DNA of 64,000 nt from Thermoplasmatota archaeon (lineage in GTDB: Archaea; Thermoplasmatota; Poseidoniia; Poseidoniales; Poseidoniaceae), in assembly GCA_036019775.1 (NCBI GenBank), contig JAYXXD010000001.1:3202-67201 (forward strand), read 5' to 3'. The position numbers and the translations under genes are program-made. Below, piece after piece: positions 40,777 to 58,320 of the stretch (the stretch's first letter is position 1; each line of letters starts with the position of its first letter). The notes under the pieces are model-generated. The model was not told where the DNA came from and made no database searches. It saw only the letters and a program-made list of their open reading frames with translations.

Positions 40777-43700
40777 TTGCTTTTATACCGTCGTCTTCTA
40801 TGTTACGAAGCGGGGGATATTTTAGTGAACATCACGTTTGAAGCATGTCCTCCAGAGAACATCGTCCCCTCATGGTTAATTGCTAATATTGCAAGCGGAC
40901 GAGACGATATACTCGTGATTTATCCGAATGAAAGTACGCGTTCAAACTCGATTCAATCCATACTCCAAAAAACAGGGACAGTTGATTCGAGTAGACACAC
41001 AACTCTCCAGCGACTTACCAAAGCGTTAGCAATTGATTTTCGCCTCCCAGTTCTGATCCCTAAATCATCAATTGGTCTTGTTCAAGTTCATGAAAAGCTG
41101 GTCACAGAGGCGTTGAATCATCGCTTCCCTCGTCTTCATCCAGACCCGACTCGGCCTTGGACGATTTCAAAATCTGAGAGGTTACTCAAACTTCATTCGT
41201 ATGCCACCAATCATCGTATTCTTTCGAAATGGGAGGAAGATCCAGGTGCTCGTGAGGCAGAACGTATTCTTTCCACATTCAGAAAAAACGACCTTCTCCA
41301 TGAACATCATGTCTTAGATCGACTTTCTAGAGATTTATTGGATGCAGAAATCTTAGGACCGTATACAATTAGTACAATCAAAGGCATTGTGTTGTTGAAC
41401 CACCCTCCAGACTTCACTGAAACCGAGAAGCGATTTTTCAAAGCATTGTCAACACGATGCCCAATTCACCATGTATGCGTTACAGGTTCCTTCCGTCTTG
41501 GATACCATGGGGCTTACATTGATGATGAAATCAAGGCCATTGAGGATATAGCAGACTTGCCTTCGTGGGTACCACAACATCAGATTTACACTTCAAAACA
41601 AAATGATTACGCGACAAATGGCGTTCATGTACTCAGCTTTGATCAAGCCACATTGGTGATGGATGCAGCGATTTCAGCTCTACAACTATACAAGAGTCAC
41701 ACGGGAGGGCGCGTTTTACTCGTGGACGCAAATAGACATAGGCATATTGAATGGGTTCGTCGATTGAATCGAATCGGAATAACATGTAATATTCATCGCG
41801 ATGTAGTAGGGAGCACATCGGCTGTTCAAGCGATTCTTCGATTCCTGTCGATTTCGAATGGCCAAGATGCTTGGTCTGCAACGAAGTTGTTCGACATCAT
41901 TCAATCACAGGCATTCCCGATGCTGGAGAACCTTTTTTCAGAACTTGAACACCCAATAAACAAAGATTGGCGACCTAGACCTCATTTGGATGTGATTGAA
42001 AATCTTGGACGAAGTTTTCATGTTCTTGGTGGAAAAGGAGCCCTTCAACGTTGGCTAGGTTCACTATCTGTCGCAAAACCCTATTCAACGGAAGCCTTTC
42101 GCCAAGAACAAGAGTTGCGGAAACTTGAGGAGACACAATGGTGGTTCCAATGTCTTGCAGTTTCTTGGTCAGCACTCCTGAGCGAACAAGAACGGAAGAC
42201 CCTCACAACTGAATTGATTGGAACATCAACTAAAACATCACTTCCTTTGCCGCAACCGAGTAAGTCGCCTAGAGATATTCTTTCATTGATGCTTTCATCT
42301 TGCGACTGGGAGCGCTTGTTTAGGCGGACTCAAAGATATGATGCCTCAGTAGGCGCAATCCAAGTTTGGGTCCAAACCATCGATGCGATGCTTCAGTATG
42401 AAACGAGCATCGATTTTGTTGACCTTTGCCGCCTTGCCTCTGAAGAAACCGAAATACCTGCTCATCGGATTGAACACCCCGACGTACTCGTTCGCACTCC
42501 TCTTCAGGCATACGGAGTCGAAGCAGATATCACAATGTTCGTCGGTCTTGATGCCGAATCGTGGTCGATGAAAGCAGAGCGAATTCCTTGGATTGATGAT
42601 TCAGTTCGAATTCAGCTAGGCTTGACTGATGGTGATCTCCCCATCCGTCGTGCCCGCCATGTGTTCAAATCATTACTTAATTCCAGCCAACAGGCGATAC
42701 TTTTTGAAACGGAACATGATGAATCAACAGGAAATTCGACACCAATTGCTGAGTATCTTTCAAAAATAGAATTGGATGGTAAATTGACAGCATTGAGACA
42801 ACCTCCGGCCTTTATTCAGCCATCAATATCTGATGGCGCAGGATGGACAACGATAACAAGAGATGACGGAAATGTCGTTACTTATCGAAGGTCAGCATTA
42901 TCCATCAACGGAAGAGAGGTATCCCTCGATTACGCGGAAAATACTCTTCGAAATAACAAACAAAAGGCAGGCCTTGAACTCAAAGCACACCGCCAACCAA
43001 TTTCAGATGTCCAATCACCGAATTCAATTGCTGCACGTTATGAGCGAGAAATTCATCTCGATCGATTTCGCCGCCAACCAAAATTCGAATCCATAGAGAA
43101 TGGAAGTTTCATGAATTGGTCGATAAGAAACAACCTGCTGACGACGACGAATATCATCATTCAGCCTACCGTTTCTCAAGCAAAGATTGCCGGGGGCAGG
43201 ACAACTAATCTCTACCCACACCTTGGTTACAAAAGGAATAGAATTTCAAGTGGCCCTTCTATCGATCCACGGCCACTTCCACCTCCACAATTCGATTCTG
43301 TGAGTTTGAATGCAATCCTTACAACTCAGACTAGAGAAAACAAATTGAGAATTTGGTCAACGAGTCGATTGAATCCTTGGTTTATTTGTCCTCGCCAAGC
43401 ATGGGCTGAGCAAACGTTGCAAGTTACCGAATCTTCTCCAGAACTTTCTGAAGATATTGCGCCTTTGACGAAAGGAACGTTGGTTCATTCCATTGAGGAA
43501 CATCTAATGACGATGCTTGGAATTGAGGTTGGTGGTCTACCGCTTTCAGCAGGTGTGCCATTGCACCTTGGCGTTCCGCTTTCTGAACAAGAAATATGGG
43601 AAAGTGTACTTGGCCGACTATCTGAACTCGCTCCGTGGCTTTCAAGGACCAATGCTGTTTCTGTACATCGTTGTAACGATCTAATTGGATGCACTCCAGA

Positions 43701-44496
43701 TAATTGGAATGCTTGGATTGATGGGAGCCAAAAATTGCCAATTAGTGGACGATTAGGACGCCTTCTTTCTGCAGACTTGAGTCTTACATCTGCCGCTCCG
43801 ATTGCAAGCGAGTGGGCGCTTCAGCATCAGGATGAACACCATGTTGAAATTCAAGGATACAACGATTTGATGGAAACGGCTTCAATCAATATACGTGGCA
43901 GAATTGACAGAGTCGATGAAAATGTTTTCCCAACAGAGGATATTGCGCAATTGCGTGAAAATGGACTCTTTGCAGAGGATGCTAAAGAGATTCCACTCTT
44001 CTTTGATGGTACGGAGCCGCCTGCAAAACGCTTCATCATCATCCGGGATATCAAAACGATTGAAGGGCCAAAACCCGGACGAGCGGGAGCACGGCATACC
44101 TCTGGGCTGTTCAACGAAATTCAACTTGCTATGTATGCACGTGCTTGGGAAATTGCCCATCCGGGTGATCGCGTCGTTGGGGTTGGAATTTCAGAGGTTG
44201 GCGACGATACCGAGCATTTTGTTGAGTTGGACCCAAGTTTTGAACCATTTACCTCAGCTCTCAATCTTGGGACGCCGACTTCATATTCAATCAACCATTT
44301 TCGTCTTCCAAATGAGAATGCAAGTCCGCAGACGAATAGTTTTCGTGCATGGATGAATTCCCGAATCACAGCTGCATTGAGAGCGGCTGAAGCAAGTGAA
44401 TTGGGTTGGAATCATCCGACGCCAGGGCCACATTGCTCCTATTGCTCTCTTTCGAGTGCATGTCCTTCAGCATCAATAGGAGGTGAATTGAAGTGA
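40777..44496 (+). CDS. AddB/RexB-like subunit: degenerate helicase-like N-terminal region plus C-terminal RecB-family PD-(D/E)XK nuclease with Fe-S cluster
   Basis: C-terminal motifs FICPRQAW (Cys 1), LVHSIEEHL, GRIDRVDE, IIRDIKT (D-x-K), QLAMY, HCSYCSLSSAC (C-x2-C-x5-C); no Walker A; start TTG 40777 or GTG 40825. Confidence 0.7.
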   Translation: MLLYRRLLCYEAGDILVNITFEACPPENIVPSWLIANIASGRDDILVIYPNESTRSNSIQSILQKTGTVDSSRHTTLQRLTKALAIDFRLPVLIPKSSIGLVQVHEKLVTEALNHRFPRLHPDPTRPWTISKSERLLKLHSYATNHRILSKWEEDPGAREAERILSTFRKNDLLHEHHVLDRLSRDLLDAEILGPYTISTIKGIVLLNHPPDFTETEKRFFKALSTRCPIHHVCVTGSFRLGYHGAYIDDEIKAIEDIADLPSWVPQHQIYTSKQNDYATNGVHVLSFDQATLVMDAAISALQLYKSHTGGRVLLVDANRHRHIEWVRRLNRIGITCNIHRDVVGSTSAVQAILRFLSISNGQDAWSATKLFDIIQSQAFPMLENLFSELEHPINKDWRPRPHLDVIENLGRSFHVLGGKGALQRWLGSLSVAKPYSTEAFRQEQELRKLEETQWWFQCLAVSWSALLSEQERKTLTTELIGTSTKTSLPLPQPSKSPRDILSLMLSSCDWERLFRRTQRYDASVGAIQVWVQTIDAMLQYETSIDFVDLCRLASEETEIPAHRIEHPDVLVRTPLQAYGVEADITMFVGLDAESWSMKAERIPWIDDSVRIQLGLTDGDLPIRRARHVFKSLLNSSQQAILFETEHDESTGNSTPIAEYLSKIELDGKLTALRQPPAFIQPSISDGAGWTTITRDDGNVVTYRRSALSINGREVSLDYAENTLRNNKQKAGLELKAHRQPISDVQSPNSIAARYEREIHLDRFRRQPKFESIENGSFMNWSIRNNLLTTTNIIIQPTVSQAKIAGGRTTNLYPHLGYKRNRISSGPSIDPRPLPPPQFDSVSLNAILTTQTRENKLRIWSTSRLNPWFICPRQAWAEQTLQVTESSPELSEDIAPLTKGTLVHSIEEHLMTMLGIEVGGLPLSAGVPLHLGVPLSEQEIWESVLGRLSELAPWLSRTNAVSVHRCNDLIGCTPDNWNAWIDGSQKLPISGRLGRLLSADLSLTSAAPIASEWALQHQDEHHVEIQGYNDLMETASINIRGRIDRVDENVFPTEDIAQLRENGLFAEDAKEIPLFFDGTEPPAKRFIIIRDIKTIEGPKPGRAGARHTSGLFNEIQLAMYARAWEIAHPGDRVVGVGISEVGDDTEHFVELDPSFEPFTSALNLGTPTSYSINHFRLPNENASPQTNSFRAWMNSRITAALRAAEASELGWNHPTPGPHCSYCSLSSACPSASIGGELK

Positions 44497-47400
44497 TCTC
44501 CTTCAATCGAAGCCAGCGATTGGGCCTGAATTTGGATCAACATATTGCTTTGGATGCAGGTGCAGGTACGGGAAAAACAACCGTTATGGCAGAACGGTAT
44601 GTTCAGCATCTCCTGTCTGCTGAGCAACGTGCCACGTATGTACTTCCGCCTCCGATCCGACAAGAACAATTTGGGTCAGGAAAGGTCTTGGCAGCAAAGC
44701 GTGATCGAACTTCCGTGAAAGATTGGAAAGGTCTCTTGCCACAAGAGATTGTCGCGATTACATTCACTCGAAAAGCCGCTTCGGAACTACGCTCCCGTAT
44801 ACGTAAACGGATACAATCTCTGCGTGCCAACCCTGTCAATGATGATGATCGAATGGGCGTTCATGACCCTCGACTACGTCATCAGGGCGATGTTTCGATG
44901 CTGATGTCATTGCTTGAGGCTGCACCAATTTCAACAATTGATGCATTTCTTTCAGAAATTTTGGCGCCGCATATTGATTTAGTTGCCATACATTTGAGTA
45001 GAGAACAATTGCCTGAAGAAAAAGCCCCTCTTCTACGTAACCAAGCCCTCAATTCTGCATGGAGAATTCGGAATTCTCAAGACGCTATCGAGGCAGGCAT
45101 GTATCAATCTGCGGATGAGTTCATTTCTGCTCGAAACAGGTTGGCAATCCGGCTCGGGGGACAACAGAGTGCTCAAACAGTTTTAGCAGGCCTTCTCGAG
45201 TCGTCCCTTTTTGTTGAGGAATCAAGACGTCGTCTTCGTTCACGTTCTATCAGTGCGAACCTACCTTGGGATGGCCATTCACCTCCAGATTACCGTTTGG
45301 TTGAAGATATGATTTTACAGGAATGTCAACACTTGGTCGATCCAGTGGTAGAGGATGTTTATGCCATTCTAAATGAATGGATTGATGTCTTCCTTCAGTA
45401 CCATTCTATATTTGTTGCACCGGCACAAATTGAAACAACCAGTACTCGTTTCAATCAACTCGTAGATTTAGCAAGAGGAGCATTACCAGATGCGCCGATT
45501 GAACGGCTCCAATGGTTGTACCAAGTCGTATCCTCGGCCACATCGATTACTCAGTTGAACGAGGCCAAACCTACTGTTTTGAAAGGAGGAAACTTTCCGC
45601 GCAGCAATTCACTTTCCGGTTGGCCAGCGGGGTTGATGACCTGGTCTTCAGTTCTCAAAAGAAAGGATGAGAAATCTCTGAAAGGCCAGATTTCAAGTGC
45701 TGCTTCTGATGCCGCACAACGGCTGCAAGACCGCATTCATGACCCTTCAGATGGTCGGTTGGTTTTCATGCTCTCGAAGGTGGCCTATTGCCTCAATCCG
45801 TCTCGTCGGTTCGCGTATAGAGATGCCAACGAACGCTATGATCGTCAACAACTTGGTCTCAAATTAAGTCAAGAAGCCCCCCTGGCGGGCATGAGAGTTT
45901 CGAAAGAACTCCAAGTAGAGGTTTTGAATGATCTTTACATCGTACATTCGGGTTGCCAAGATTTGCTTCGTCACCTGAAGTCTCAGGAAGAGGCCCATGA
46001 TTTTGATGATGTGCAAGTTATGGTAGGAGATCTGCTTCTGGTCCGCTGCCCAGCAATCGTTCGTCATTGGTATCCTCCTGAGGCTGTCCAAGCCTTAGAT
46101 GACCTTGGAGAAGAACCCTGGTCCGATGAACACATTCGAAAGGCCCTCACAATTATGCAAAGTGATGAGGCAAAATATCTGGATTTGCAACGAAGGTATG
46201 CACTTCTGAAGCAGATTCGCGCTCGGTATCGAGCATTCATTATCGACGAATATCAAGATACAAACCCTGAACATGCACGTCTCCTTTCTCGTCTATGGGG
46301 CCGTCGCGAAGGCATATCCGATGAACATCCAGCGCCATCTGGACCGTGGGACCCAACCATTTGCATCGTCGGGGATATGAAGCAGAGCATCTATCGTTTC
46401 AGACAGGCAGAGGTCACGGTTATGCGCCGAATGGTTGCAGCCATCCGTGTTGCGAATAGTCTCGAAAATAATGAGTCAAGACTGGAGGCCTTCACCCAAC
46501 AAGGATTTGGTAGAGATCCCCGACCAATCGGCGCAGGGGGAGAATTGGGCTCTTTCATTCGGGCATCGGATTATTCCCGTGAGGAACAATCATCGTCATG
46601 GGATTACGTTTCTTTCGGGAGAGATGATGCTGGGATGGCACTCGAAGACTCAACCAGACAAGAACGAGCAGAGGGTCATATTCAACTTCGAACAAATTTC
46701 CGTACTGCTCCTGCTTTGCTCCAAACTCTCAACAACATGTTTGAAGACACTTTTGACTCAAGACATCATCAATTCCCTGGAGATTTTCATGCGACTGCGC
46801 AACCACTTGACGCCGGCCGAGAAACCTCTCTTGAAGGGGCGATTGAATGGCTCTTGCCCACACAAAACAATACTGGAGAGTTGCCATTGAATCTGATGGA
46901 AGGATACAACCTCTACGATGCAAGAAATGCAAACCTTCGCCACCTTGAACATGAACTGATTGCTTCGAGGTTGGATACATTAGTTCGAGGATTACCGACG
47001 CGAATTTGGTCTGCAGAAAATGCAGAGTACATCGAGATAGAGGCTGAAGAGAAGATTTCTCCTGAAGACGTGATGATTCTTGTACATTCACGGAAGCACA
47101 TCCCAGATCTTGTTGCGCGTCTTCAATCGCGAGGACTACCGGTTATGGCCGATAAGCAAGGCGAATTGCTTAAACAACCCGTCGTTCAACCATTGATGGC
47201 TGTTCTGGAACTACTTGCCAAGCCAAATTCAAGGCATGCTGCACATTCCTTACTACGTTCCTCGATTGTTGGTGCTTCATCCATTCAAATTGAAGAAATA
47301 TTCCAATTGACCGATGTGGAAGACTATTGGGTTCATTCGGCAGAATATTTTGCTTCAGCAGCGCAAGGACCCCTTCTTCTTGCACTTGCTCAATTGGCTC

Positions 47401-49466
47401 AAAATGGTGCAGTTTACGACTTATTCGATGCAGTATTGGATTACAGCGATTTGCTTATTGCGTTCCCCGACGAAGCTGAGCGTCAAGTGGCTGAGATGTG
47501 GTGCGCATTGGTTCATAAGATTGGGTCTGAAACCGGCCATGAACCCGCGGCAATACTTGAACAAATGAAGGCATATGCAACACTTGGAAATAAGGGGCCA
47601 CAAGCCAGTTCATCACCAACCAGTGGCGCAATTCAAATAATGACAATTCACGGTGCGAAGGGACTCCAAGCACCTGTTGTTATTGTAACAGGATTGTTCG
47701 AAGCAGGGCGGAGAAGTTCAAGCATAGAAGCACAGAACAATATTTTGATCACACCCGATGTTATTGCTGGAAGAATCCAGCCATGGAAGTCAAAAGATAA
47801 ACCAGCGGATGCTCTCTGGATGCTAGCAGAACAAATGAACAAGGCACAGAATCAAGCCGAGTTACGACGTCAGTTCTACGTAGCGTTAACTCGCGTCAAA
47901 GATCGTCTCATTTTTGTTGGATCTCCGAACACTCCCTGTACAATTGGTGAGAATTCGATGGTGACCATGAAAATCAATTCGAAAGGAAACAATATGGGTG
48001 ATTTGATGTTGGATGGATTCCGATATATGGGGCACTGCTCTGGAAATCAGCAAGTATGGAGTCTTGAAGGAGATGTGCAAGGTGAACACTTGGAAGAATA
48101 CGGAGAACAAGTGTTGGAATTCAACCCCATCAGTATTTTCCATGCTAGCGGCTTCATGTCAGGTTCCCTTCAACGACTTCGAATGTATCATCATCCTGAC
48201 TGTTTTTCAATCCAAACGCCAACTTCAGCCTTATCGAATTGGTTGGCTATTGAAGAACAACTTTGCGAGCCTGTTGACGCGGTCCAATCGGACCAATACA
48301 TCGTACATCAATCACCAACTCTCAGAATGACAGCACATGGATTGGATACTGCAAATTCATGCCGTCGCAGATATTGGTTATCGCATGTGAAGGGTTGGCA
48401 AAGTGAACCGTTCAATATCGGAAAAAATTCGAGTTCAGCCATTGATGAAGAGGAGCAAAAGGATCGTTCAAATGGAGAGGATTTGGAAAATATGGTAATT
48501 GGTTGGCCTTCAGCAACATCATTTGGTTCGATGTTTCACAGACTTGTTGAGATTGGTTTAGCTAATCCAGCAAGAATAAAATCGAAGAACAGTGAACTTG
48601 GTCCAGTTTGGCTCAATGCTCAGAAAAATCAACTGCTTTCAGACAAAGAAATCGATGATGCAACACAGTCACAGCCGGAATGGCATCGACTGTCAAAAGA
48701 AGAGCAACAGAAAACTCGATCAAGAATCGTTCAACTTGCAACATTGCTTACAAATGGATCCTTAGGAAGGATGGTTGATGGCGAAGAAATCAATGATTGC
48801 AACATTGAAGGGTTACGCACTGAAGCATCCTTCTATTTTGATTATGAAGTCGACTTCGAAGGCCTTGTTCGGTTGCCACTTACCCAACTGAATGAACCGT
48901 ATGTAACACGAATCGATACCGTCAAAATACTCTTCGAGGGCCAAGCAGATCTCGCATTGGCAGGTGTTCAAGGAGATAAACCATGGTTGCAGGTTGTCGA
49001 TTTGAAAACTTCCGGTGCACGCACGGAACGTCTCGAAGAACATGCATTGTATGAGTCATTGAATGAACCGTATTCTTTTGAACCTCAAAACGATGCTGAG
49101 TATGAGATGTTACGTAATCATCGACTTCAACTGACTCTGTATTCTCTTGTTTTTCGACGCCAAGAAGATCGAAAACCAACTGATAAGCGAAGAGAAGTAC
49201 GTCCACCGGCTTTGCTAATCGCAAGCACTGGTCGTTTTGTTCAAATGCCTGAGAATATGTACGAGGAAGCTGAGAATGAATTGCTTGACCTGCTTCAATG
49301 GGTGGCGAATTTGACCGCGAATCCGAATGGCACCACCGAGCCAAAACGCCTTCCGATGGAATTCATTGATACCTGCAAGAAATGTCCATTCTTCAAGGGC
49401 GATGTTCGAATGTGTGGTCCACAAGGAATGGAATTAGGCATCAACGGTGACCTTTCTTTCCAATGA
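44493..49466 (+). CDS. AddA/RecB-like UvrD-family SF1 helicase with C-terminal PD-(D/E)XK nuclease (1657 aa)
   Basis: Motif I LDAGAGTGKT, Ia TFTRKAASEL, III FIIDEYQDT, IV GDMKQSIYRFRQAE, IVa NFRTAP, V TIHGAKGLQAPVV, VI YVALTRVKDRL; nuclease GSMFHRLVE, EGQADLAL, VVDLKTSG, LTLYSL; GTGA overlap with the upstream gene. Confidence 0.85.
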   Translation: MISFNRSQRLGLNLDQHIALDAGAGTGKTTVMAERYVQHLLSAEQRATYVLPPPIRQEQFGSGKVLAAKRDRTSVKDWKGLLPQEIVAITFTRKAASELRSRIRKRIQSLRANPVNDDDRMGVHDPRLRHQGDVSMLMSLLEAAPISTIDAFLSEILAPHIDLVAIHLSREQLPEEKAPLLRNQALNSAWRIRNSQDAIEAGMYQSADEFISARNRLAIRLGGQQSAQTVLAGLLESSLFVEESRRRLRSRSISANLPWDGHSPPDYRLVEDMILQECQHLVDPVVEDVYAILNEWIDVFLQYHSIFVAPAQIETTSTRFNQLVDLARGALPDAPIERLQWLYQVVSSATSITQLNEAKPTVLKGGNFPRSNSLSGWPAGLMTWSSVLKRKDEKSLKGQISSAASDAAQRLQDRIHDPSDGRLVFMLSKVAYCLNPSRRFAYRDANERYDRQQLGLKLSQEAPLAGMRVSKELQVEVLNDLYIVHSGCQDLLRHLKSQEEAHDFDDVQVMVGDLLLVRCPAIVRHWYPPEAVQALDDLGEEPWSDEHIRKALTIMQSDEAKYLDLQRRYALLKQIRARYRAFIIDEYQDTNPEHARLLSRLWGRREGISDEHPAPSGPWDPTICIVGDMKQSIYRFRQAEVTVMRRMVAAIRVANSLENNESRLEAFTQQGFGRDPRPIGAGGELGSFIRASDYSREEQSSSWDYVSFGRDDAGMALEDSTRQERAEGHIQLRTNFRTAPALLQTLNNMFEDTFDSRHHQFPGDFHATAQPLDAGRETSLEGAIEWLLPTQNNTGELPLNLMEGYNLYDARNANLRHLEHELIASRLDTLVRGLPTRIWSAENAEYIEIEAEEKISPEDVMILVHSRKHIPDLVARLQSRGLPVMADKQGELLKQPVVQPLMAVLELLAKPNSRHAAHSLLRSSIVGASSIQIEEIFQLTDVEDYWVHSAEYFASAAQGPLLLALAQLAQNGAVYDLFDAVLDYSDLLIAFPDEAERQVAEMWCALVHKIGSETGHEPAAILEQMKAYATLGNKGPQASSSPTSGAIQIMTIHGAKGLQAPVVIVTGLFEAGRRSSSIEAQNNILITPDVIAGRIQPWKSKDKPADALWMLAEQMNKAQNQAELRRQFYVALTRVKDRLIFVGSPNTPCTIGENSMVTMKINSKGNNMGDLMLDGFRYMGHCSGNQQVWSLEGDVQGEHLEEYGEQVLEFNPISIFHASGFMSGSLQRLRMYHHPDCFSIQTPTSALSNWLAIEEQLCEPVDAVQSDQYIVHQSPTLRMTAHGLDTANSCRRRYWLSHVKGWQSEPFNIGKNSSSAIDEEEQKDRSNGEDLENMVIGWPSATSFGSMFHRLVEIGLANPARIKSKNSELGPVWLNAQKNQLLSDKEIDDATQSQPEWHRLSKEEQQKTRSRIVQLATLLTNGSLGRMVDGEEINDCNIEGLRTEASFYFDYEVDFEGLVRLPLTQLNEPYVTRIDTVKILFEGQADLALAGVQGDKPWLQVVDLKTSGARTERLEEHALYESLNEPYSFEPQNDAEYEMLRNHRLQLTLYSLVFRRQEDRKPTDKRREVRPPALLIASTGRFVQMPENMYEEAENELLDLLQWVANLTANPNGTTEPKRLPMEFIDTCKKCPFFKGDVRMCGPQGMELGINGDLSFQ

Positions 49467-51447: not shown

Positions 51448-52245
51448 ATGAGTGAAGAAGGAACCATCACCCCTGAAGTTCAAATCGGACAACTCGAAGA
51501 GGCTCTTGCGACTGAAACTGATCGGTTGAAGAAACTCTTTGCAGCTTATGAAACTCAAGAAAAGGAACTCGTTGATGCACGTGCAGAAATTGAAGTTCTT
51601 GAGAAAGAAATTATCGACAAAGAGATTGAGCGAGAAGCTCAAGAATCACTCATCGCCGAGAAGGATTTTCGAATTCGTGAACTTGAAATGAAGGCAACCA
51701 AGGCTGACAAGCGTGTCGAGCATTTGGAACCTGCTCTCCAAACTATGGAAGAAAAGTATTCACGTGAGAAGGATCGACTTGGCAAAGTCTTCGGTATTGC
51801 TGAAGAACTTGATAACGACCTCAAACTCGCTGTGTCAGAAATGAAAGCACGAGATGATTGGTATGTTGCCCACATGACCCTGTTTGAGGATTTGAACAAG
51901 GCGATTAAGGAACGTTACGAAATGATTGAGAGTGCTGTTGAAGCCGAGCGCCAATCTCAACACATGTCTCGTGCCTTCACAGAGCGCATGGATGAGATGG
52001 TCGAAGCGCGAGCAGCAGAAATGACCGTTGAAGAAGCAGAATCCCTCATTGAAGAGGAATCTGCAACAGATTCAGAAGCGGCTGAAGAACCCGTGCCTGA
52101 GGAAACATCATCCGAAGAAACAGAAGAAAATGAAACCCCACCCGAGGAAGTTTCTCCTGAAGCCGAATCGAAAGAAGAGGAACAGGCTGAAGCATCGGAG
52201 GAAGATACCTGGAATTCCGATGTCGACCCTTGGTCTGACAATTGA
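51448..52245 (+). CDS. Coiled-coil protein with strongly acidic low-complexity C-terminus
   Basis: Heptad-rich N-terminal 200 aa; E/S/T-rich tail; GGAGGcattCCTCC hairpin just upstream of the ATG. Confidence 0.5.
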   Translation: MSEEGTITPEVQIGQLEEALATETDRLKKLFAAYETQEKELVDARAEIEVLEKEIIDKEIEREAQESLIAEKDFRIRELEMKATKADKRVEHLEPALQTMEEKYSREKDRLGKVFGIAEELDNDLKLAVSEMKARDDWYVAHMTLFEDLNKAIKERYEMIESAVEAERQSQHMSRAFTERMDEMVEARAAEMTVEEAESLIEEESATDSEAAEEPVPEETSSEETEENETPPEEVSPEAESKEEEQAEASEEDTWNSDVDPWSDN

Positions 52246-54392: not shown

Positions 54393-54665
54393 ATGTCGAA
54401 CAGCACCGAACTCCCCGATGCAGTTATTGGAACTGCAGAACCATCATCCAGCCGTATCATTCTCGTATTGCTTTCAGTTGTAACTGTCGGCATGTTTGGA
54501 TTGTTTAGCACAATCTTTGGGTGGGACAACATTCCTGTCGCTGGAGATATTGTTCCATTAATGTCAAATCTCGGAGGTTCTGGAATTTGGTATTACTTAC
54601 TCGGATTTATAATCGGACTTGGTGCGATTGTATCGACACTAGCAGGCGAGGTCCTTGCAGATTGA
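54393..54665 (+). CDS. Small 2-TM membrane protein
   Basis: 90 aa, two hydrophobic helices. Confidence 0.4.
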   Translation: MSNSTELPDAVIGTAEPSSSRIILVLLSVVTVGMFGLFSTIFGWDNIPVAGDIVPLMSNLGGSGIWYYLLGFIIGLGAIVSTLAGEVLAD

Positions 54666-54675
54666 GGTGATATGA

Positions 54676-56637
54676 ATGGATGCAGTATTCATTGCTCTTG
54701 CCTTCTTTTTTACTGTTGTTGGATTTGCAACATTTTACGTTCAGCGTGGAATAGGAAATATGGCAGATCCGATGCGCCAGTTCGGACTGTTCCTCCTCAA
54801 CAAAGCGCCCGCAGGTATTGTTGACCTTTTCAGTGATGGGAAAGGCAGCGGTTCCAAAACGTGGATGAATTTTGGAATGATTTGGCTCACTTTTGCTGCC
54901 ATTGGAACATTCCTTGCTCTTTGGCATGATTATGATGCAACAGCATTGGATTCACTTGCAAGCATTGGTTGGGAATACGACGATGGGAGTTCATTGAACG
55001 CATTTGTTGATATCACGCTCATGACAGGCCTCATGTCGATTCTAATTGGCGGCGGACTTGTTGCAGCAGCACGAGCAGGAGCAGGTCGACTTGCTAGTGA
55101 AGCAAATGCGAGTCTCACCGCACTTCTGTTCTCGGTTTTGACAATCTCTTCGATGCTTCTTCCTACAATTCTTGGCCTTATTTTCGATTTATCAGCAGCA
55201 AATGATGCATTCATCAAAGACCTCTTTCTGAATGCTCTTCGTTCATTCATCATCATTGCTGTAATGATCAACGTTCTCATTACAGTTGGCCAACGAAAAG
55301 GAGAGGTTGTTTCAGCGAGCAATTGGTTCCTGTTCATGGCGCTTGCTTCGTTTATTTTCGGTTCACAATTCCGCTTCTTTGGAGAACTCGCAGATTCTAC
55401 TCAAACCGTTTGGCTCGGTGAGAGAATGTCTCAGTCTTGGACACTTATCGCACTTCTATTCGCTGTGGCTTATCACGTTGTTCCACGAGCCGCAAGTCGT
55501 CCAATTTGGTCGGATTCAATGACAAAAGCGAGCCTTCTTCTCCTCTTTTTCACATTACCACCGTTTTTGTTATCTTCAGCAGATGCTGGAACGCTGCTTG
55601 AGAATATCGGAGCCATCTTGATGACGCTTGCACTACTTCCAATTTTGGCTGGTTCTGTGAACATTATCATGACTTCATTGAGCAATGCGACTGGTGTTGT
55701 CTCACGACCGGGTGCACTAGCCGCAACCATCGCAATGGTCTTTTTCCCACTGTACGCCCTTGGAGGATACTTCACTTCACTTGATGTTTTCATAGGGCTA
55801 GGAGCTCTAAACGATATGGCTGAGACAGTTGATATCGGATTCATGTGGACTGTTGGTGGTTTGATGGCTGTTGCTTGTGTTGCTGAATCTTACCCTCTTG
55901 CAGGAGATCGACAACTTTCCTCGCCTTCATCTGCATCGCTGTCGACGATGTTGATTGCTTTCGGTGGGGTTACCTCTACGGTTGCAAAATTGATGGGAGA
56001 CTTCACAGAAAAAGCACTTCTTGATTCTGGAAGCGAAGATGTCGTCATGACAGATGGTGGTTTCAGCCTTACCGCTGCTGTTTTGTTTTACTTTGGATCA
56101 ATTGGTATTATACTCTTGTTCCTCAATCTCATCCGCACTTCAATTGGTGGCGTAAAAGTCGATACATCTGTTTCAACGACATCAGACATCTCTCGTTATT
56201 CGATGCAACCTGGTGAATCCTCAATTCGCAAGCTATTGCAACGTGGAGTGGGCGTGGATACAATTCTCGTTGTTGGAGCAGATGTCGAAGACGAAGGCGG
56301 AATGACAATCATCGATGTATCGTCAACATTGCACGATGACGAAATTGATGAATTCCCAGTCGAAAAGAACGAGCTGGAAATGTTATCCGATTATCTGGCA
56401 AAGAAAGACATCAGTATTTTCGAATTCTTCCGGTCAATAGACCTTGACGACTCTGGCCTCATTGATGGATATGAACTTCAGCAAGCACTGCGGAATGCAG
56501 AAATTGCAGATTTACCTCCATGGGATATCGCCAAGTTGATGGAATTTGTTGATATTGATGGCGACGGACGAGTAAATCTTCCAGAGCTTGATATTGCAAT
56601 TGCACGTGTTCGTTCAGGCGTATCTGAAGAAGAGTGA
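54676..56637 (+). CDS. Polytopic membrane protein (~12 TM) with C-terminal pair of canonical EF-hand Ca2+-binding loops
   Basis: EF loops DLDDSGLIDGYE and DIDGDGRVNLPE (DxDxDGxIxxxE consensus) at ~56440-56590; hydrophobic helices throughout. Confidence 0.65.
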   Translation: MDAVFIALAFFFTVVGFATFYVQRGIGNMADPMRQFGLFLLNKAPAGIVDLFSDGKGSGSKTWMNFGMIWLTFAAIGTFLALWHDYDATALDSLASIGWEYDDGSSLNAFVDITLMTGLMSILIGGGLVAAARAGAGRLASEANASLTALLFSVLTISSMLLPTILGLIFDLSAANDAFIKDLFLNALRSFIIIAVMINVLITVGQRKGEVVSASNWFLFMALASFIFGSQFRFFGELADSTQTVWLGERMSQSWTLIALLFAVAYHVVPRAASRPIWSDSMTKASLLLLFFTLPPFLLSSADAGTLLENIGAILMTLALLPILAGSVNIIMTSLSNATGVVSRPGALAATIAMVFFPLYALGGYFTSLDVFIGLGALNDMAETVDIGFMWTVGGLMAVACVAESYPLAGDRQLSSPSSASLSTMLIAFGGVTSTVAKLMGDFTEKALLDSGSEDVVMTDGGFSLTAAVLFYFGSIGIILLFLNLIRTSIGGVKVDTSVSTTSDISRYSMQPGESSIRKLLQRGVGVDTILVVGADVEDEGGMTIIDVSSTLHDDEIDEFPVEKNELEMLSDYLAKKDISIFEFFRSIDLDDSGLIDGYELQQALRNAEIADLPPWDIAKLMEFVDIDGDGRVNLPELDIAIARVRSGVSEEE

Positions 56638-57929
56638 GACGAGGCGGTCTAACCGTGCGTGTAGGTTTGGTTGGAAAACCAAATGTTGGAAAGTCAACGT
56701 TCTTCTCAGCATCGACACTCATTCCTGTGGACATTGCGAATTACCCTTTTTGTACGATAGAACCCAATGTCGGGTTTTCTTTCATCCCCAGTCGGCAACC
56801 ATGCCCATGCGGTGATTTACGTGAACGTCTAGAGGAGAGTGGGCGCGCTCAATTTAGTGATGAACGAGGTGGTAGCATATGCACTCCAAGGACAGGTTCT
56901 TGTCATGGTCATCAACGTTATGTTCCCTGTTTGCTTGTTGATGTTGCTGGTCTAGTACCGGGTGCGAATGAAGGCCGTGGGAGAGGGAATGCCTTTCTAT
57001 CAGATTTAGCAGAGTGTGATGCACTAATCCAAGTCATTGATGTTGCTGGTACGACAGATATCGAGGGAAACCCTACCGGATTGAAAGCAACTAAGGAAGA
57101 AGCCATTCAACAGGCTCTTGCAGAGGTAGAATTTCTCACGAATGAGTTGGATGCTTGGATTCTTGGCCTTGTAAAAGACGGTTGGTCCAGAGGTGCTCGG
57201 AGAATACAAGCCGAAGGCGTGAAAGGATTTACACAATTTCTTCAAGAACGTCTATCCGGTTTAGGTGCAACCGAAATAATGTGTCAACGATCTTTTGATA
57301 TGTTTGCACAAAAGCACTCCGACATGACGTCACCATGGGATTGGTCTGATGATGTGTTGATACTTCTCGCCTCGTCTCTGCGTGTAAATTTATTTCCAAT
57401 CTTTGTCGCAGGAAACAAAGCAGATTTAGCACCAGAAGGCGTTGTTGAACACCTTAATGCAATGCTTCCATCATTCACACCTTGTTCCGCTGAAACTGAG
57501 CTTGCACTTCGTCAAGCAGGTAAAGCAGGATTCATTACCTACAAGTTGGGCGACTCATTTTTTGAATTAAATAAAGACCAATCTATGAGTGAAGCACAAC
57601 AGAAGGGTCTCGATGTATTAGCAGAACGTCTGCATAGAATGCAAGGCACTGGAATTCTCAAGTTGCTTGATCAAGTGTTGTTTGATGAACTTGAGCGTAT
57701 TGTGGTTTATCCTGTTCAGGATGAAGCTCAATGGACTGATGGTGAGGGGCATGTTCTTCCCGATGCATTCGTCGTTCCAAATGGAATACAAGCAAAGCAA
57801 GTTGCTTACAAGGTTCATTCAGACCTTGGTGATGGATTCATCAAGGGCGTTGATGCTCGCACACGACGAATTGTTGGTGCTGAACATCAACTTACAGACG
57901 GAGATGTTCTGAGGATCCATTCTAAGTGA
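56634..57929 (+). CDS. ychF: YchF/Ola1-family GTPase with C-terminal TGS-like domain and a Cys-rich insertion
   Basis: G1 GLVGKPNVGKST, ANYPFCTIEPNVG, G3 DVAGLV, NKAD (G4); insertion PCPCGD...C...CHGH; start GTG 56634 or 56655. Confidence 0.8.
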   Translation: MRRGGLTVRVGLVGKPNVGKSTFFSASTLIPVDIANYPFCTIEPNVGFSFIPSRQPCPCGDLRERLEESGRAQFSDERGGSICTPRTGSCHGHQRYVPCLLVDVAGLVPGANEGRGRGNAFLSDLAECDALIQVIDVAGTTDIEGNPTGLKATKEEAIQQALAEVEFLTNELDAWILGLVKDGWSRGARRIQAEGVKGFTQFLQERLSGLGATEIMCQRSFDMFAQKHSDMTSPWDWSDDVLILLASSLRVNLFPIFVAGNKADLAPEGVVEHLNAMLPSFTPCSAETELALRQAGKAGFITYKLGDSFFELNKDQSMSEAQQKGLDVLAERLHRMQGTGILKLLDQVLFDELERIVVYPVQDEAQWTDGEGHVLPDAFVVPNGIQAKQVAYKVHSDLGDGFIKGVDARTRRIVGAEHQLTDGDVLRIHSK

Positions 57930-57933
57930 CAAT

Positions 57934-58320
57934 TCAATGCCCTTTTGGTCGCTCATATTCAGGTGTCAGCCGAGCAAGATTGCTCGAGTATTTTGCTGCA
58001 CCAGTGATAAAGACAACAATCGACGCAAGCGTAAGCAATGTGAGCATGATTAGCATGTACCAGCCCCATGGATCAACACCTCGAATTGTGGTGATGAAAA
58101 TTCCCCACAAAACGGTCAGATAGAGAAATGGACGGTAGCGGCGAGTGACGGTACTCAGTCGGGCCGACTTCAGGGTATCGTCGTAGAGGTTTGCAACCTC
58201 ATCTTTGCTAACATAACCATGCTCGACTCCACAACGAGAGCAAACTTGTGTGTTTGGTCCGTTCCCGTGAATAAAAAATTCACGAGGATAGGTTCCAGAG
58301 CAGAGTCGACAGATTGGCAT
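57934..58320 (-). CDS. Zinc-ribbon (CxxC...CxxC) membrane protein, 2 TM
   Basis: CRLCSG...CSRCG then two hydrophobic helices. Confidence 0.45.
   Translation of the reverse strand: MPICRLCSGTYPREFFIHGNGPNTQVCSRCGVEHGYVSKDEVANLYDDTLKSARLSTVTRRYRPFLYLTVLWGIFITTIRGVDPWGWYMLIMLTLLTLASIVVFITGAAKYSSNLARLTPEYERPKGH

Follow-up and report, generated by a model that had tools for sequence, protein, structure and literature searches.

Introduction

Few membrane enzymes are as well studied as the heme-copper oxidases (HCOs), whose superfamily is usually defined by six invariant histidines. CcoN of the cbb3 oxidases and NorB of cNOR belong to the same branch of this superfamily, NorB being characterized by the six histidines, by FeB-binding glutamates and by a NorC partner. 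Several eukaryotic proteins, including the NOX5/DUOX/Rboh NADPH oxidases, TPC1 channels, SCaMC/Aralar carriers and LETM1, combine a polytopic membrane module with a canonical EF-hand pair in the cytosol. In these proteins, for which electron transfer, conduction or transport has been demonstrated, the EF pair is presumed to relay Ca2+ occupancy to the membrane module. In general, many EF-hand-bearing membrane proteins are channels, carriers or oxidases. Polytopic enzyme folds can also be conserved and repurposed after losing their catalytic residues, as is the case for iRhoms and Derlins, the inactive rhomboids.

Marine Group II archaea count among the archaea that are most abundant in surface seawater. 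To our knowledge, calcium signalling in archaea is poorly documented. The literature that we found on HCO pseudoenzymes, and on EF-hands and cbb3 oxidases in Poseidoniales/Marine Group II, contains no description of the protein family considered here, nor of any conserved, redox-partner-less pseudoenzyme branch of the HCO superfamily. Meheust et al. 2022 (PMC9258230) noted Poseidoniales-specific modules with calcium-binding domains and, separately, a family of Halobacteria that is a remote relative of HCO subunit I.

Here we analyse a gene in a 64,000-nucleotide stretch of DNA from a member of the Poseidoniaceae (the window, in the following). We consider it highly probable that its product is a ligand-less HCO homologue with a cytoplasmic EF-hand pair and a non-redox function, and we refer to it as a pseudo-oxidase.

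The pseudo-oxidase locus

The features of the locus are collected in Table 1. The gene is present in the list of open reading frames at exactly the coordinates given there, with ATG as its start codon. In Poseidoniales lineages it is usually flanked by RaSEA and by a YchF-related GTPase, in the conserved order archaetidylserine decarboxylase (PSD), RaSEA, small ORF, pseudo-oxidase, GTPase. PSD, RaSEA, the GTPase and ribosomal proteins make up a housekeeping block that is syntenic throughout the order.

Table 1. Features of the pseudo-oxidase locus, with positions in the window.
Feature	Position	Strand	Basis or remarks
Two-TM small protein, 90 aa; conserved partner gene directly upstream	54393..54665	+	ORF list; homologues in relatives
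Shine-Dalgarno-like GAGGTGA	54664..54670	+	Overlaps the small-ORF stop codon; 5 nt separate it from ATG 54676; direct sequence reading
Pseudo-oxidase gene, 653 aa; predicted ligand-less HCO subunit I homologue with C-terminal EF-hand pair	54676..56637	+	
Family-specific N-terminal extension, residues 1-57: TM helix TM0 and cytoplasmic segment	54676..54846	+	Modelled helices 3-24 and 30-42
12-TM core, residues 58-491; predicted HCO subunit I/CcoN homologue, metal ligands replaced	54847..56148	+	Foldseek, hhalign, core-profile search
Cytoplasmic post-TM12 motif, residues 504-534, DISRYSMQPGESSIRKLLQRGVGVDTILVVG	56185..56277	+	Family hallmark; conservation
Acidic disordered linker, residues 535-563	56278..56364	+	pLDDT <50 in both models; length varies among relatives
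EF-hand pair domain, residues 566-647, predicted cytoplasmic	56371..56616	+	Pfam, calmodulin C-lobe alignment, pLDDT ~80, positive-inside analysis
EF loop 1, DLDDSGLIDGYE	56440..56475	+	D589, D591, S593, G594, E600 invariant
EF loop 2, DIDGDGRVNLPE	56551..56586	+	D626, D628, D630, G631, N634, E637 invariant
Shine-Dalgarno-like GAGGCGG within the 17 nt ahead of the GTPase gene	56641..56647	+	(G/A)GGCGG conserved in close relatives
YchF-related GTPase (PRK09602 type; G domain, YGR210-like G4 domain, TGS), corrected GTG start	56655..57929	+	

A diverged heme-copper oxidase fold

The membrane part of the protein (residues 1-560) was matched by nothing in Pfam or NCBIfam. In particular, the window protein alone gave no match to Pfam COX1 even at E 0.1, and a profile of eight TM-core sequences gave none among PDB sequences even at E <= 10. 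The relationship with HCOs emerged only through fold search, exhaustive HMM search and hhalign. Specifically, two independent structure models, built from family-only alignments, were compared with the PDB by Foldseek, and the best match was cbb3 CcoN (E 7e-9 to 1e-8, TMt 0.79); with the second model, the top 45 matches were all HCO subunit I chains. The CcoN structures (PDB 3mk7, 5djq, 8smr, 9g6b, 9g83, 6xkw) have the same 12-TM fold, with TMt 0.75-0.79 and an rmsd of ~4 A over ~480 columns, followed by NorB (PDB 3o0r, 4xyd) and qNOR with E 7e-6 to 5e-5 and TMt 0.66-0.74. In a library of 1.84 billion proteins, the core profile found at E 9e-6 a protein (P0227) that matches solved cbb3 oxidases at E 3.6e-81 and is a genuine CcoN. 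The hhalign comparison of the core with genuine CcoN returned a probability of 96.2% (E 2.5e-9, 375 columns).

The three approaches agree on HCO subunit I, and the core is predicted to be a diverged homologue of this subunit, closest to CcoN of the cbb3 oxidases. Identity with CcoN amounts to only 12-16%, while short motifs are common to both: PR..(x)..SE after TM2, T...R at the end of TM4, W at the start of TM5, (Y)(Y/H)xxP...P.(Y/W)S after TM6 and P..A...N...T in TM8. On the cytoplasmic face, the core shares R133, S141/E142, T203, W217, S279, N329, T333 and P407 with genuine CcoN. From the letters alone, the protein had earlier been proposed to be an EF-hand-regulated transporter or channel. 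This identity found no support and was rejected: Pfam and NCBIfam gave no match to a family of this kind, and the fold matches to MATE and MurJ had probabilities of 0.10-0.23 and a TM-score of ~0.12. What the same reading took as distinctive, the tail, still stands out: the core belongs to a known superfamily, from which EF-hand tails are not known.

Loss of cofactor ligands and redox partners

The six histidine ligands and the cross-linked tyrosine of CcoN are all replaced in the window protein, and the hhalign alignment gives the same result. The two axial histidines of the low-spin haem, H60 in TM2 and H347 in TM10, correspond to F110 and I387; among 20 members of the family, histidines occur only at the H347 column, scattered and non-conserved. 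The proximal histidine of the high-spin haem (H345, TM10) is V385, the column being occupied by V, L, M, I, S or A family-wide. Likewise, the CuB/FeB histidines H207 (TM6), H257 and H258 (TM7) are replaced by R250, S300 and S301, in columns that vary across the family, and the cross-linked tyrosine (Y251 in the C-family) by L294, with L, V, I, F or T at this position in the family. Only two histidines are left in the core, neither of them conserved family-wide: H84, in the extracellular loop between TM1 and TM2, and H267, which lies where TM6 ends on the cytoplasmic side and aligns with the second tyrosine of the 'YYFxP' motif of CcoN. They were considered as substitute haem ligands and rejected in view of these positions and of their lack of conservation beyond Poseidoniaceae.

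The genes that would provide redox partners are missing from the neighbourhood as well. No gene for CcoO/CcoP, NorC or a CuA subunit II was found within +/-5-6 kb in eight lineages or among the window ORFs scanned, and of the CcoN partners CcoQ, too, has no gene nearby. The pseudo-oxidase has none of the features that distinguish NorB, namely the six histidines, the FeB-binding glutamates and NorC. Because all six histidines and the cross-linked tyrosine are lost and no cytochrome partner genes lie nearby, canonical redox chemistry is excluded, and the protein is predicted to be incapable of canonical O2 or NO reduction.

Another, independent HCO subunit I homologue without most of the histidine ligands, the ligand-poor CcoN P0219 (GCA_009377435.1), is matched by the same family profile. 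It differs from the pseudo-oxidase in that it passes Pfam COX1 with 80.9 bits and sits in a ccoNOP-like operon beside Rieske/cytochrome b genes; furthermore, it lacks an EF or SAP tail as well as the post-TM12 motif and a small two-TM partner, and in a neighbour-joining tree it falls outside the Poseidoniales clade.

Topology and additions to the core

The earlier count of about 12 TM helices in a polytopic membrane protein is close to what we find, that is, 13 helices, made up of the 12-TM core and one extra helix at the N-terminus. Genuine CcoN has no counterpart of the N-terminal extension that contains this helix, in which G25, F39, K43, A44, D50 and G57 are conserved family-wide. The post-TM12 motif is a further addition with respect to CcoN, as are the EF-hand tail, with or without a SAP domain, and the unrelated 90-aa partner. 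R518, G524, D528 and T529 of the motif are invariant in 20/20 full-length members, tail-less ones included; in a wider set of 53 sequences G524 and T529 remain invariant, and R518 and D528 are at least 90% conserved. The motif is modelled as a small beta-alpha-beta element with pLDDT 59-74.

Lysines and arginines are unevenly distributed between the two sides of the membrane, with a positive-inside count (K+R) of 14.1 for the even loops and the post-TM12 segment against 2.2 for the odd loops. From this bias, which fits the CcoN-type topology assumed for the core, the EF-hands are predicted to be cytoplasmic, and so are both ends of the core, in agreement with CcoN. A cytoplasmic tail is also consistent with the SAP domain that the same tail carries in relatives. 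The question of the side of the membrane on which the EF-hands lie, raised by the sequence-only reading, is in this way answered by positive-inside analysis in favour of the cytoplasm. The extracellular loops are strongly acidic (~16 D+E vs ~2 K+R) and almost invariant within Poseidoniaceae, with W83-H84-x-Y-D87, W99-x-Y-D102, D370, D386, D442 and E454 as their conserved elements.

A canonical EF-hand pair

The C-terminal tail is a canonical, paired EF-hand domain and is predicted to bind Ca2+. The two 12-residue loops, DLDDSGLIDGYE and DIDGDGRVNLPE, follow the canonical pattern, with oxygen ligands at positions 1, 3, 5, 9 and 12 (Glu at 12), Gly at position 6 and a hydrophobic residue at position 8. 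Aligned with calmodulin, the tail is in register with EF3/EF4, and ligand positions 1, 3, 5, 9 and 12 as well as Gly6 are again canonical. Pfam recognizes the domain above threshold as EF-hand_7 (PF13499; 36.9 bits vs a cut-off of 30, E 4.9e-9, residues 581-638), EF-hand_1 (PF00036; 29.6 vs 25.4) and EF-hand_6 (PF13405; 27.8 vs 25). In the PDB, 268 EF-hand chains match the tail at E <= 0.01, the best one at E 1.1e-11. In both structure models the loops are flanked by helices, and the ligand positions are invariant in 16 relatives, with identity down to 48%. Accordingly, the original observation of two textbook EF loops at the C-terminus is borne out, all their acidic ligands being kept. In the search of the whole protein against Pfam and NCBIfam, the EF-hand region also gave a weak match to XopAW, far below its cut-off.

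A small partner protein inherited with the pseudo-oxidase

The small two-TM protein encoded directly upstream has no match in Pfam or NCBIfam. In all lineages examined, a homologue of 89-105 aa precedes the oxidase-like gene at a distance of 4-13 nt, and the pairing holds even in relatives with 22-28% identity. Identity of these homologues with the window copy is 30-58%, and P17, P48, I65, W66, G71, G75 and E86 are invariant among them. The small protein appears to co-evolve with the pseudo-oxidase, the two being inherited together across Poseidoniales.

Distribution, tail modularity and selection

Homologues of the pseudo-oxidase occur across Poseidoniales, with 578 database matches, and EF-hand domains are present in 119/120 of the matches listed (the best 120 of the 578). 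The combination of a polytopic core with EF-hands is unusual, as had been claimed from the sequence, and yet not rare within its own lineage. More distant relatives have no EF-hand tail. As a whole, the tail is modular: relatives have EF-hands, EF-hands plus SAP, SAP alone or no tail, while the window genome has one canonical EF pair and its protein no SAP domain by either Pfam or alignment. By alignment, 12/21 diverse members carry a SAP/HeH-type domain, which Pfam confirms in 11; the domain occurs on either side of the tree, both in EF-bearing clades and in the EF-less clade. The tree, obtained by neighbour joining and having no support values, is indicative only. The tail-less clade comprises P0145, P0154, P0156, P0158, P0159 and P0168; in tail-less relatives, whose length is 526-564 aa, core, post-TM12 motif and small partner are all retained. 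The P0140 cluster, related to this clade, has the source name Thalassarchaeaceae.

The gene is under strong purifying selection: dN/dS against close relatives ranges from 0.008 to 0.066 over core, linker and tail, with values of ~0.03-0.04 for the core. A decaying pseudogene, or relic of an oxidase, was considered and dismissed in view of the intact ORFs in hundreds of genomes and of dN/dS values of ~0.01-0.07.

Proposed role and alternative explanations

The explanation that we find best overall, to which we would give slightly less than even chances, is that a repurposed pseudo-oxidase acts as a non-redox, Ca2+-responsive platform. A specific mechanism can be proposed somewhat more tentatively. 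The core and the small subunit would form a docking or signalling platform facing the cytoplasm, and the EF pair, on its flexible acidic linker, would bind cytoplasmic Ca2+ and thereby switch an interaction at the platform, for which it would either fold back on the post-TM12 element or engage a partner. A candidate for such a partner is the neighbouring YchF-type GTPase. In SAP-bearing relatives, the tail might additionally contact nucleic acid. This proposal is made because the residues conserved family-wide (K43/D50, R133/E142, S279, N329/T333 and R518/G524/D528/T529) cluster on the cytoplasmic face and include no intramembrane acidic residue. Since the core, the motif and the small subunit persist in tail-less relatives, the EF-hands would have an accessory, regulatory part and would not themselves carry the core function.

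The main rival, over which we favour the Ca2+-responsive platform and which we regard as unlikely, is a Ca2+-regulated ion or proton conduit, which transfers the sequence-only proposal to another scaffold. The cofactor-free core, together with the small subunit, would conduct H+ or another cation across the membrane and be gated by the cytoplasmic EF pair in response to intracellular Ca2+. The oxidase fold carries built-in hydrophilic pathways, and residues are retained at its cytoplasmic end, namely Y266, S279, N329 and T333, which align with what we take to be the proton-entry (K-analogue) pathway of CcoN, Y266 and S279 presumably corresponding to Y223 and S236 of P. stutzeri CcoN. Moreover, the acidic, near-invariant extracellular loops of Poseidoniaceae (D87, D102, D370, D386, D442, E454) would suit the attraction or binding of cations, so that an outward cation site or conduction path would be as compatible with them as a docking surface, and other EF-hand membrane proteins are often channels, carriers or oxidases. 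Nevertheless, no charged intramembrane residue is conserved family-wide, the former haem-ligand positions are mostly hydrophobic (F, V, I, L, M), which suggests a filled core rather than a pore, and the equivalents of T215, S240 and H243, which we assume to be further K-pathway positions, are not conserved. The channel and transporter families show no similarity, and the SAP domain that relatives carry on the same tail, a module that binds nucleic acid, would be atypical for a channel regulator. The eukaryotic EF-hand proteins differ in several respects: their membrane modules are not homologous to the pseudo-oxidase, which has no cofactor ligands and whose EF pair is C-terminal, attached by a disordered linker and dispensable in some relatives. 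The likeness with iRhoms and Derlins is conceptual, their fold and biology being unrelated.

The presence of a SAP/HeH-type domain in so many diverse members, and the long disordered acidic linker between core and modular tail, would fit a core that has no activity or binding site of its own and just holds the EF (or SAP) tail at the membrane, for instance as a Ca2+-dependent tether of the chromosome or nucleoid; the HeH/LEM tethers of the eukaryotic inner nuclear membrane offer a conceptual parallel. We consider such a passive anchor improbable. A 12-TM core evolving under such constraint, together with a co-evolving second subunit, exceeds what an anchor needs, and the window protein itself is devoid of SAP. 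In addition, the core must have a function without any tail, because the tail-less relatives conserve it along with the motif and the small partner. Far less probable still is a protein that remains active as an unconventional oxidoreductase on O2, NO or another substrate, with haem or metal held by Met, Tyr, Lys, Asp or Glu. The fold is indeed kept, together with many Met, Tyr and Asp residues in Poseidoniaceae (M354, M381, M397, Y266, Y406, Y472, D370, D386), and a JGI fragment in the P0159 cluster has been automatically named 'heme/copper-type cytochrome/quinol oxidase subunit 1'. On the other side, seven of the seven catalytic positions are replaced and, because the replacements vary across lineages, no alternative ligand set is conserved; the family-wide invariants offer no plausible intramembrane metal ligands. 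An electron-donor subunit is lacking nearby, whereas the ligand-poor P0219 keeps FixO and cytochrome c genes, and the failure of the window protein to match COX1 points in the same direction.

Put in the widest terms, the Ca2+-responsive platform, which might serve the adjacent YchF-type GTPase or the nucleoid, or, alternatively, a Ca2+-gated ion path would make the pseudo-oxidase part of an order-wide two-subunit membrane machine, derived from a cbb3/NOR-type subunit devoid of its redox cofactors and controlled by Ca2+ sensing of the EF-hands in the cytoplasm; SAP would connect it with nucleic acid in the many relatives that have this domain. This broad picture is possible, and rather doubtful in its entirety. 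If confirmed, it would represent, as far as the literature found shows, the first HCO pseudoenzyme to have gained a new function, and would give archaeal EF-hand calcium signalling a concrete case that can be put to the test. The existence of an order-wide branch of this kind shows that repurposing of the HCO scaffold is possible, and leads one to ask what an oxidase fold can do when free of cofactors. On a practical level, metabolic reconstructions of Poseidoniales that rely on similarity-based annotation could count pseudo-oxidase genes among the terminal oxidases by mistake. An invariant cytoplasmic EF pair on a conserved membrane complex of a globally abundant lineage, with a tail that is soluble, is also a good entry point for experiments.

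The downstream GTPase gene

The GTPase that is a candidate partner of the EF pair is recognized by NCBIfam NF007171 with 413.9 bits against a cut-off of 387, as well as by Pfam domains. Its gene adjoins the pseudo-oxidase gene in most lineages, while in the P0159 lineage a gene on the opposite strand is inserted between them. Because the whole block has a conserved order and this insertion exists, synteny alone cannot establish a functional link, and the adjacency could reflect inherited gene order.

In the window, the two genes are close and probably co-transcribed, with no overlap. A GTGA overlap had been read from the sequence as coupling them. The four letters are present (56634-56637), as a by-product of the ...GAG-TGA end of the upstream gene. 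In every relative the N-terminus of the GTPase reads M-(R/K)-(I/V)-GLVGKPN, and four of them (L011, L014, L016, L027) have an in-frame stop that separates the upstream GTG from this conserved start. Because of these two observations, we place the start of the GTPase at GTG 56655, 17 nt past the stop codon of the pseudo-oxidase gene. Translational coupling by GTGA is ruled out by the conserved start, by the in-frame stops and by L027, in which the upstream gene ends in TAA. In relatives, the conserved GTPase start is found 13-60 nt downstream.

Architecture of the pseudo-oxidase

The present analysis demonstrates a non-redox descendant of the catalytic subunit of heme-copper oxidases (HCO), here termed the pseudo-oxidase, with a canonical EF-hand pair predicted to be cytoplasmic and with a dedicated small partner. 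The open reading frame (ORF) lies exactly where a sequence-only reading had placed a polytopic membrane protein, and hydropathy together with two AlphaFold models indicates 13 transmembrane (TM) helices and, C-terminal to them, a soluble tail some 160 residues long.

Coordinates of the pseudo-oxidase gene, its product and adjoining features
Feature	Position	Strand	Remarks
Small partner	54393..54665	+	90 aa, two TM; ends 10 nt upstream of pseudo-oxidase gene
GAGGTGA	54664-54670	+	5 nt before pseudo-oxidase ATG
Pseudo-oxidase ORF	54676..56637	+	653 aa, ATG start
N-terminal extension	residues 1-57		family-specific; extra TM helix and cytoplasmic segment
12-TM core	residues 58-491
Family hallmark motif	residues 504-534		G-x3-(S/T)-I-R518-x-L-L-x2-G524-x3-D528-T529
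Disordered acidic linker	residues 535-563
EF-hand pair	residues 566-647
EF loop 1	56440-56475		DLDDSGLIDGYE
EF loop 2	56551-56586		DIDGDGRVNLPE
C-terminus of 653-aa protein			EEE
GTPase start	GTG 56655	+	VRVGLVGKPNVGKST as translated; 17 nt past stop, conserved GAGGCGG in front

In the N-terminal extension, G25, F39, K43, A44, D50 and G57 are conserved within the cytoplasmic segment. The hallmark motif, modelled as a small beta-alpha-beta element (pLDDT 59-74), has R518, G524, D528 and T529 invariant in each of the 20 full-length members compared. A short acidic stretch, EEE or EE, ends many members without the nucleic-acid-binding SAP domain, tail-less ones included, as in the window protein (...SEEE, residues 651-653) and its relatives P0124 (...HEEE), P0145 (...CEEEE), P0159 (...IDEEE) and P0156 (...EEE), and may be a conserved C-terminal recognition motif.

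The membrane core is a homologue of HCO subunit I

Residues 1-560 have no match in Pfam or NCBIfam, and a core profile from eight relatives matched no PDB sequence even at E <= 10. A first structural model, built from family members only (pLDDT 68), found its best structural matches in HCO subunit I chains, led by CcoN of cbb3 oxidases (E about 1e-8, target TM-score 0.79, about 480 aligned columns) and then NorB, ba3, aa3 and bo3. A second model, based on a 53-sequence family-only alignment (pLDDT 80.3, pTM 0.72), gave the same ranking, the top 45 matches all being subunit I chains. An exhaustive HMM search with the core profile against 1.84 billion representative proteins returned only 123, among the weakest of which were P0227 (E 9e-6) and P0240, two genuine CcoNs (Pfam COX1 321 and 245 bits; P0227 matches solved cbb3 oxidases at E 3.6e-81). 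When the family core was aligned with these two by hhalign, the probability was 96.2% (E 2.5e-9, 375 columns). Since fold match, HMM search and hhalign are independent and converge, we assign the membrane part to the HCO superfamily by fold and homology. The sequence-only reading had proposed a transporter or channel, which is unsupported as stated, and had left the family of the TM core to profile comparison, which now places it with subunit I. The motifs common to the family and CcoN are mostly on the cytoplasmic side (R133...S141-E142, T203...R207, W217, Y266-x-x-x-P270...P276-x-W-S279, P322-x-x-A325...N329...T333 and P407).

In CcoN, the 12-TM core begins and ends on the cytoplasmic side. 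The mean K+R content of 53 family members is 14.1 on the even-numbered loops together with the 25 residues that follow TM12, versus 2.2 on the odd-numbered loops, where about 16 D+E are found. This distribution fits a CcoN-type topology and the fact that this tail bears a SAP domain in relatives. From these three indications the EF-hands, whose side of the membrane the sequence-only reading had not settled, are predicted to be cytoplasmic, with the N-terminus outside and a strongly acidic outer face.

Loss of the redox cofactor ligands

Seven CcoN positions were mapped by multiple alignment, namely H60 and H347 (low-spin haem), H345 (high-spin haem), H207, H257 and H258 (CuB) and Y251 (cross-link). 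In the same order, the window protein has F110, I387, V385, R250, S300, S301 and L294. All seven are kept in the two genuine CcoNs and by none of the 20 full-length family members; the substituted residues vary from lineage to lineage and are mostly hydrophobic at the former haem-ligand positions. The hhalign alignment gives the same loss. Independently of any alignment, the window core contains only two histidines, H84 in the extracellular TM1-TM2 loop and H267 at the cytoplasmic end of TM6, where CcoN has the second Tyr of its YYFxP motif, and neither is conserved beyond Poseidoniaceae. Genes for cytochrome c, FixO/CcoO, NorC or a CuA subunit were found neither within 5-6 kb in eight lineages nor among the window ORFs scanned. 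A canonical oxidase is thus ruled out, by the loss of all seven ligand or cross-link residues and by the lack of a redox partner gene within 5-6 kb.

Against close relatives, dN/dS is 0.03-0.04 in the core, 0.01-0.07 in the linker and 0.01-0.02 in the EF tail, values that cover only comparisons with a computable dS and are approximate because synonymous sites are near saturation, but far below 1. A homologue search gave 578 proteins, nearly all full length among the matches listed, and these results together rule out a relic oxidase. Scanning species-representative genomes gave 125 stretches with a confirmed relative, nearly all of the 80 listed being titled Poseidoniales, Poseidoniaceae or with an unspecific archaeal name. 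Two contigs with the archaeal gene (L011, L021) belong to MAGs labelled Salipiger bermudensis and Rhodobiaceae bacterium, probably through mis-binning of Poseidoniales contigs into bacterial MAGs.

A second, unrelated CcoN-like protein, P0219 (L095:5001-6461; NCBI GCA_009377435.1, WHUC01000003.1; Pfam COX1 80.9 bits), is by alignment without the three haem-ligand histidines and CuB H257/H258, and may keep H207 as 'DLHFVG'. Its gene is followed by FixO/CcoO and cytochrome c genes and adjoined by Rieske/cytochrome b genes in a ccoNOP-like operon, whereas the pseudo-oxidase has no redox neighbours. As P0219 is also ligand-poor, Poseidoniales may not be alone in having lost ligands of HCO subunit I.

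The EF-hand tail

Both canonical EF loops quoted in the sequence-only reading are present at the C-terminus. In Pfam, EF-hand_7 matches at 36.9 bits (gathering score 30; E 4.9e-9), with EF-hand_1 and EF-hand_6 likewise above their cut-offs; the tail is in register with calmodulin EF3/EF4, and 268 solved EF-hand chains match at E <= 0.01. Ligand positions (D589, D591, S593, G594, E600 and D626, D628, D630, G631, N634, E637) show no substitution in relatives as distant as 48% identity. Because of this threshold, register and invariance, the loops are, on sequence criteria, more than chance.

As to the distribution of the fusion, EF-hand domains occur in 119 of the best 120 of 578 homologue matches, the exception being a partial sequence. 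These 120 all belong to the Poseidoniaceae-type part of the family; about one fifth of them additionally have a C-terminal SAP domain and some a second EF pair. In a comparison of 21 divergent family sequences (20 full length), 12 have the EF pair, and alignment gives a SAP-like C-terminus for 12, of which Pfam confirms 11. Ten of the SAP-like sequences also have the EF pair, the other two (P0140, whose cluster is named Thalassarchaeaceae by the source, and P0150) having SAP only; seven have no tail domain, six of them full length (526-564 aa). With genuine CcoN as root, a crude NJ tree shows the family as one clade, and an ancestral EF+SAP tail with later losses is suggested by the EF(+SAP) forms lying on both sides of the tail-less clade. 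The window gene is a SAP-less variant, and the tail is accessory, since core, post-TM12 motif and small subunit persist without it. Two proteins of 814-815 aa (P0043/P0044) end in a SAP domain and have an additional EF-hand pair within the linker (four EF-hands in total). In P0151 (857 aa), EF pair and SAP are separated by a long coiled-coil-like insertion; the cytoplasmic tail is evolving fast through domain insertion.

Genomic context

In every lineage examined, even where the large proteins are only 22-28% identical, a homologue of the small partner (89-105 aa) precedes the large gene by 4-13 nt. These homologues co-vary with the large proteins and are 30-58% identical to the small partner in the window: small partner and pseudo-oxidase are an invariant unit. 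The usual neighbours are RaSEA upstream and a PRK09602 YchF-related GTPase downstream. The GTPase link is a lead rather than a finding, because both neighbours sit in a housekeeping gene block syntenic across the order and because a gene on the opposite strand lies between pseudo-oxidase and GTPase in the P0159 lineage.

The sequence-only reading had coupled the two genes by a GTGA overlap. The letters are present, derived from the gene end ...GAA-GAG-TGA, but the overlap is not: the GTPase begins 17 nt downstream, as deduced from the N-terminus M-(R/K)-(I/V)-G-L-V-G-K-P-N of all relatives examined, from an in-frame stop between the upstream GTG and the GTPase start in four close relatives (L011, L014, L016, L027; in L027 the upstream gene ends in TAA) and from gene callers, which place the start 9-63 nt downstream where it directly follows and farther behind the inserted gene in one lineage. 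The two genes are close and probably co-transcribed. Apart from this coupling, the original observation is confirmed.

Possible function and relation to known systems

Beyond structural W/G/P/F, the residues conserved family-wide cluster on the cytoplasmic face (K43, D50; R133, E142; N199, T203; S279; N329, T333; R518, G524, D528, T529), and no intramembrane acidic residue is conserved family-wide. Given these two features and the mostly hydrophobic haem-ligand positions, we tentatively favour a core that would act as a docking or signalling platform facing the cytoplasm, whose interaction might switch when the tethered EF pair binds Ca2+; candidate partners would be the neighbouring GTPase and, in SAP-bearing forms, nucleic acid. 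The main rival, a Ca2+-gated ion or proton path reusing the hydrophilic routes of the oxidase, is favoured by acidic extracellular loops near-invariant within Poseidoniaceae (D87, D102, D370, D386, D442, E454) and seems somewhat unlikely. A passive anchor is rather improbable, given that some relatives have no tail and that the core is strongly constrained, and an unconventional active oxidase, with neither a conserved alternative ligand set nor an electron donor, is very improbable.

Compared with HCO enzymes, the pseudo-oxidase fails every defining feature testable by sequence or context, and none of the genuine oxidases compared has a tail with EF-hands or SAP, a 13th helix at the N-terminus or this small partner; we know of no HCO with any of them. 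The eukaryotic EF-hand-controlled membrane proteins NOX5/Rboh, TPC1 and SCaMC are alike in architecture, and the iRhoms, as membrane pseudoenzymes, in concept, but none is homologous to it. Marine Group II archaea thus have a conserved HCO branch without cofactor ligands, fused to a cytoplasmic module with a predicted Ca2+-sensor role and provided with a new small subunit, a finding surprising for specialists in respiratory enzymes or archaeal signalling. No published description of the family was found in the literature searched. The closest statements come from Meheust et al. 2022 (PMC9258230), who note calcium-binding domains in Poseidoniales-specific protein-family modules and, separately, a distant relationship to HCO subunit I for a family specific to Halobacteria. 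Source annotations read 'hypothetical' or 'EF-hand domain-containing', and a fragment of one relative is auto-named 'heme/copper-type cytochrome/quinol oxidase subunit 1'.

Other genes in the window and in relatives

Upstream of archaetidylserine decarboxylase, a very acidic, coiled-coil-like protein of 265 aa (51448-52245, +) with an E/S/P-rich C-terminal third has no Pfam match; relatives have an unannotated ORF of 238-264 aa at its position. Locus L094 encodes a 226-aa SAP/HeH-domain protein a few genes upstream of the radical-SAM gene. A 128-aa ORF (57934-58320, -), also without a Pfam match, has an N-terminal Cys-rich, zinc-ribbon-like segment (CxxC...CxxC) and two predicted TM helices; an ORF of 128 aa also directly follows the GTPase in all three Poseidoniaceae-type relatives examined. 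Two overlapping, very large genes (40777-44496 and 44493-49466, +; 1239 and 1657 aa), conserved upstream in relatives, encode an AddAB/helicase-nuclease-like pair, with a PD-(D/E)XK nuclease and with UvrD-helicase plus PD-(D/E)XK domains. A NAD-dependent, bacterial LigA-type DNA ligase with BRCT and HhH domains (751-2895, +) is found in this archaeal genome; such ligases are known in some archaeal lineages, and this one is a probable bacterial-type acquisition. Finally, a 1380-aa protein with an FG-GAP repeat (19601-23743, +) and an 836-aa protein with PKD domains (2953-5463, +) are probable large surface proteins, of a kind probably typical of Marine Group II genomes.
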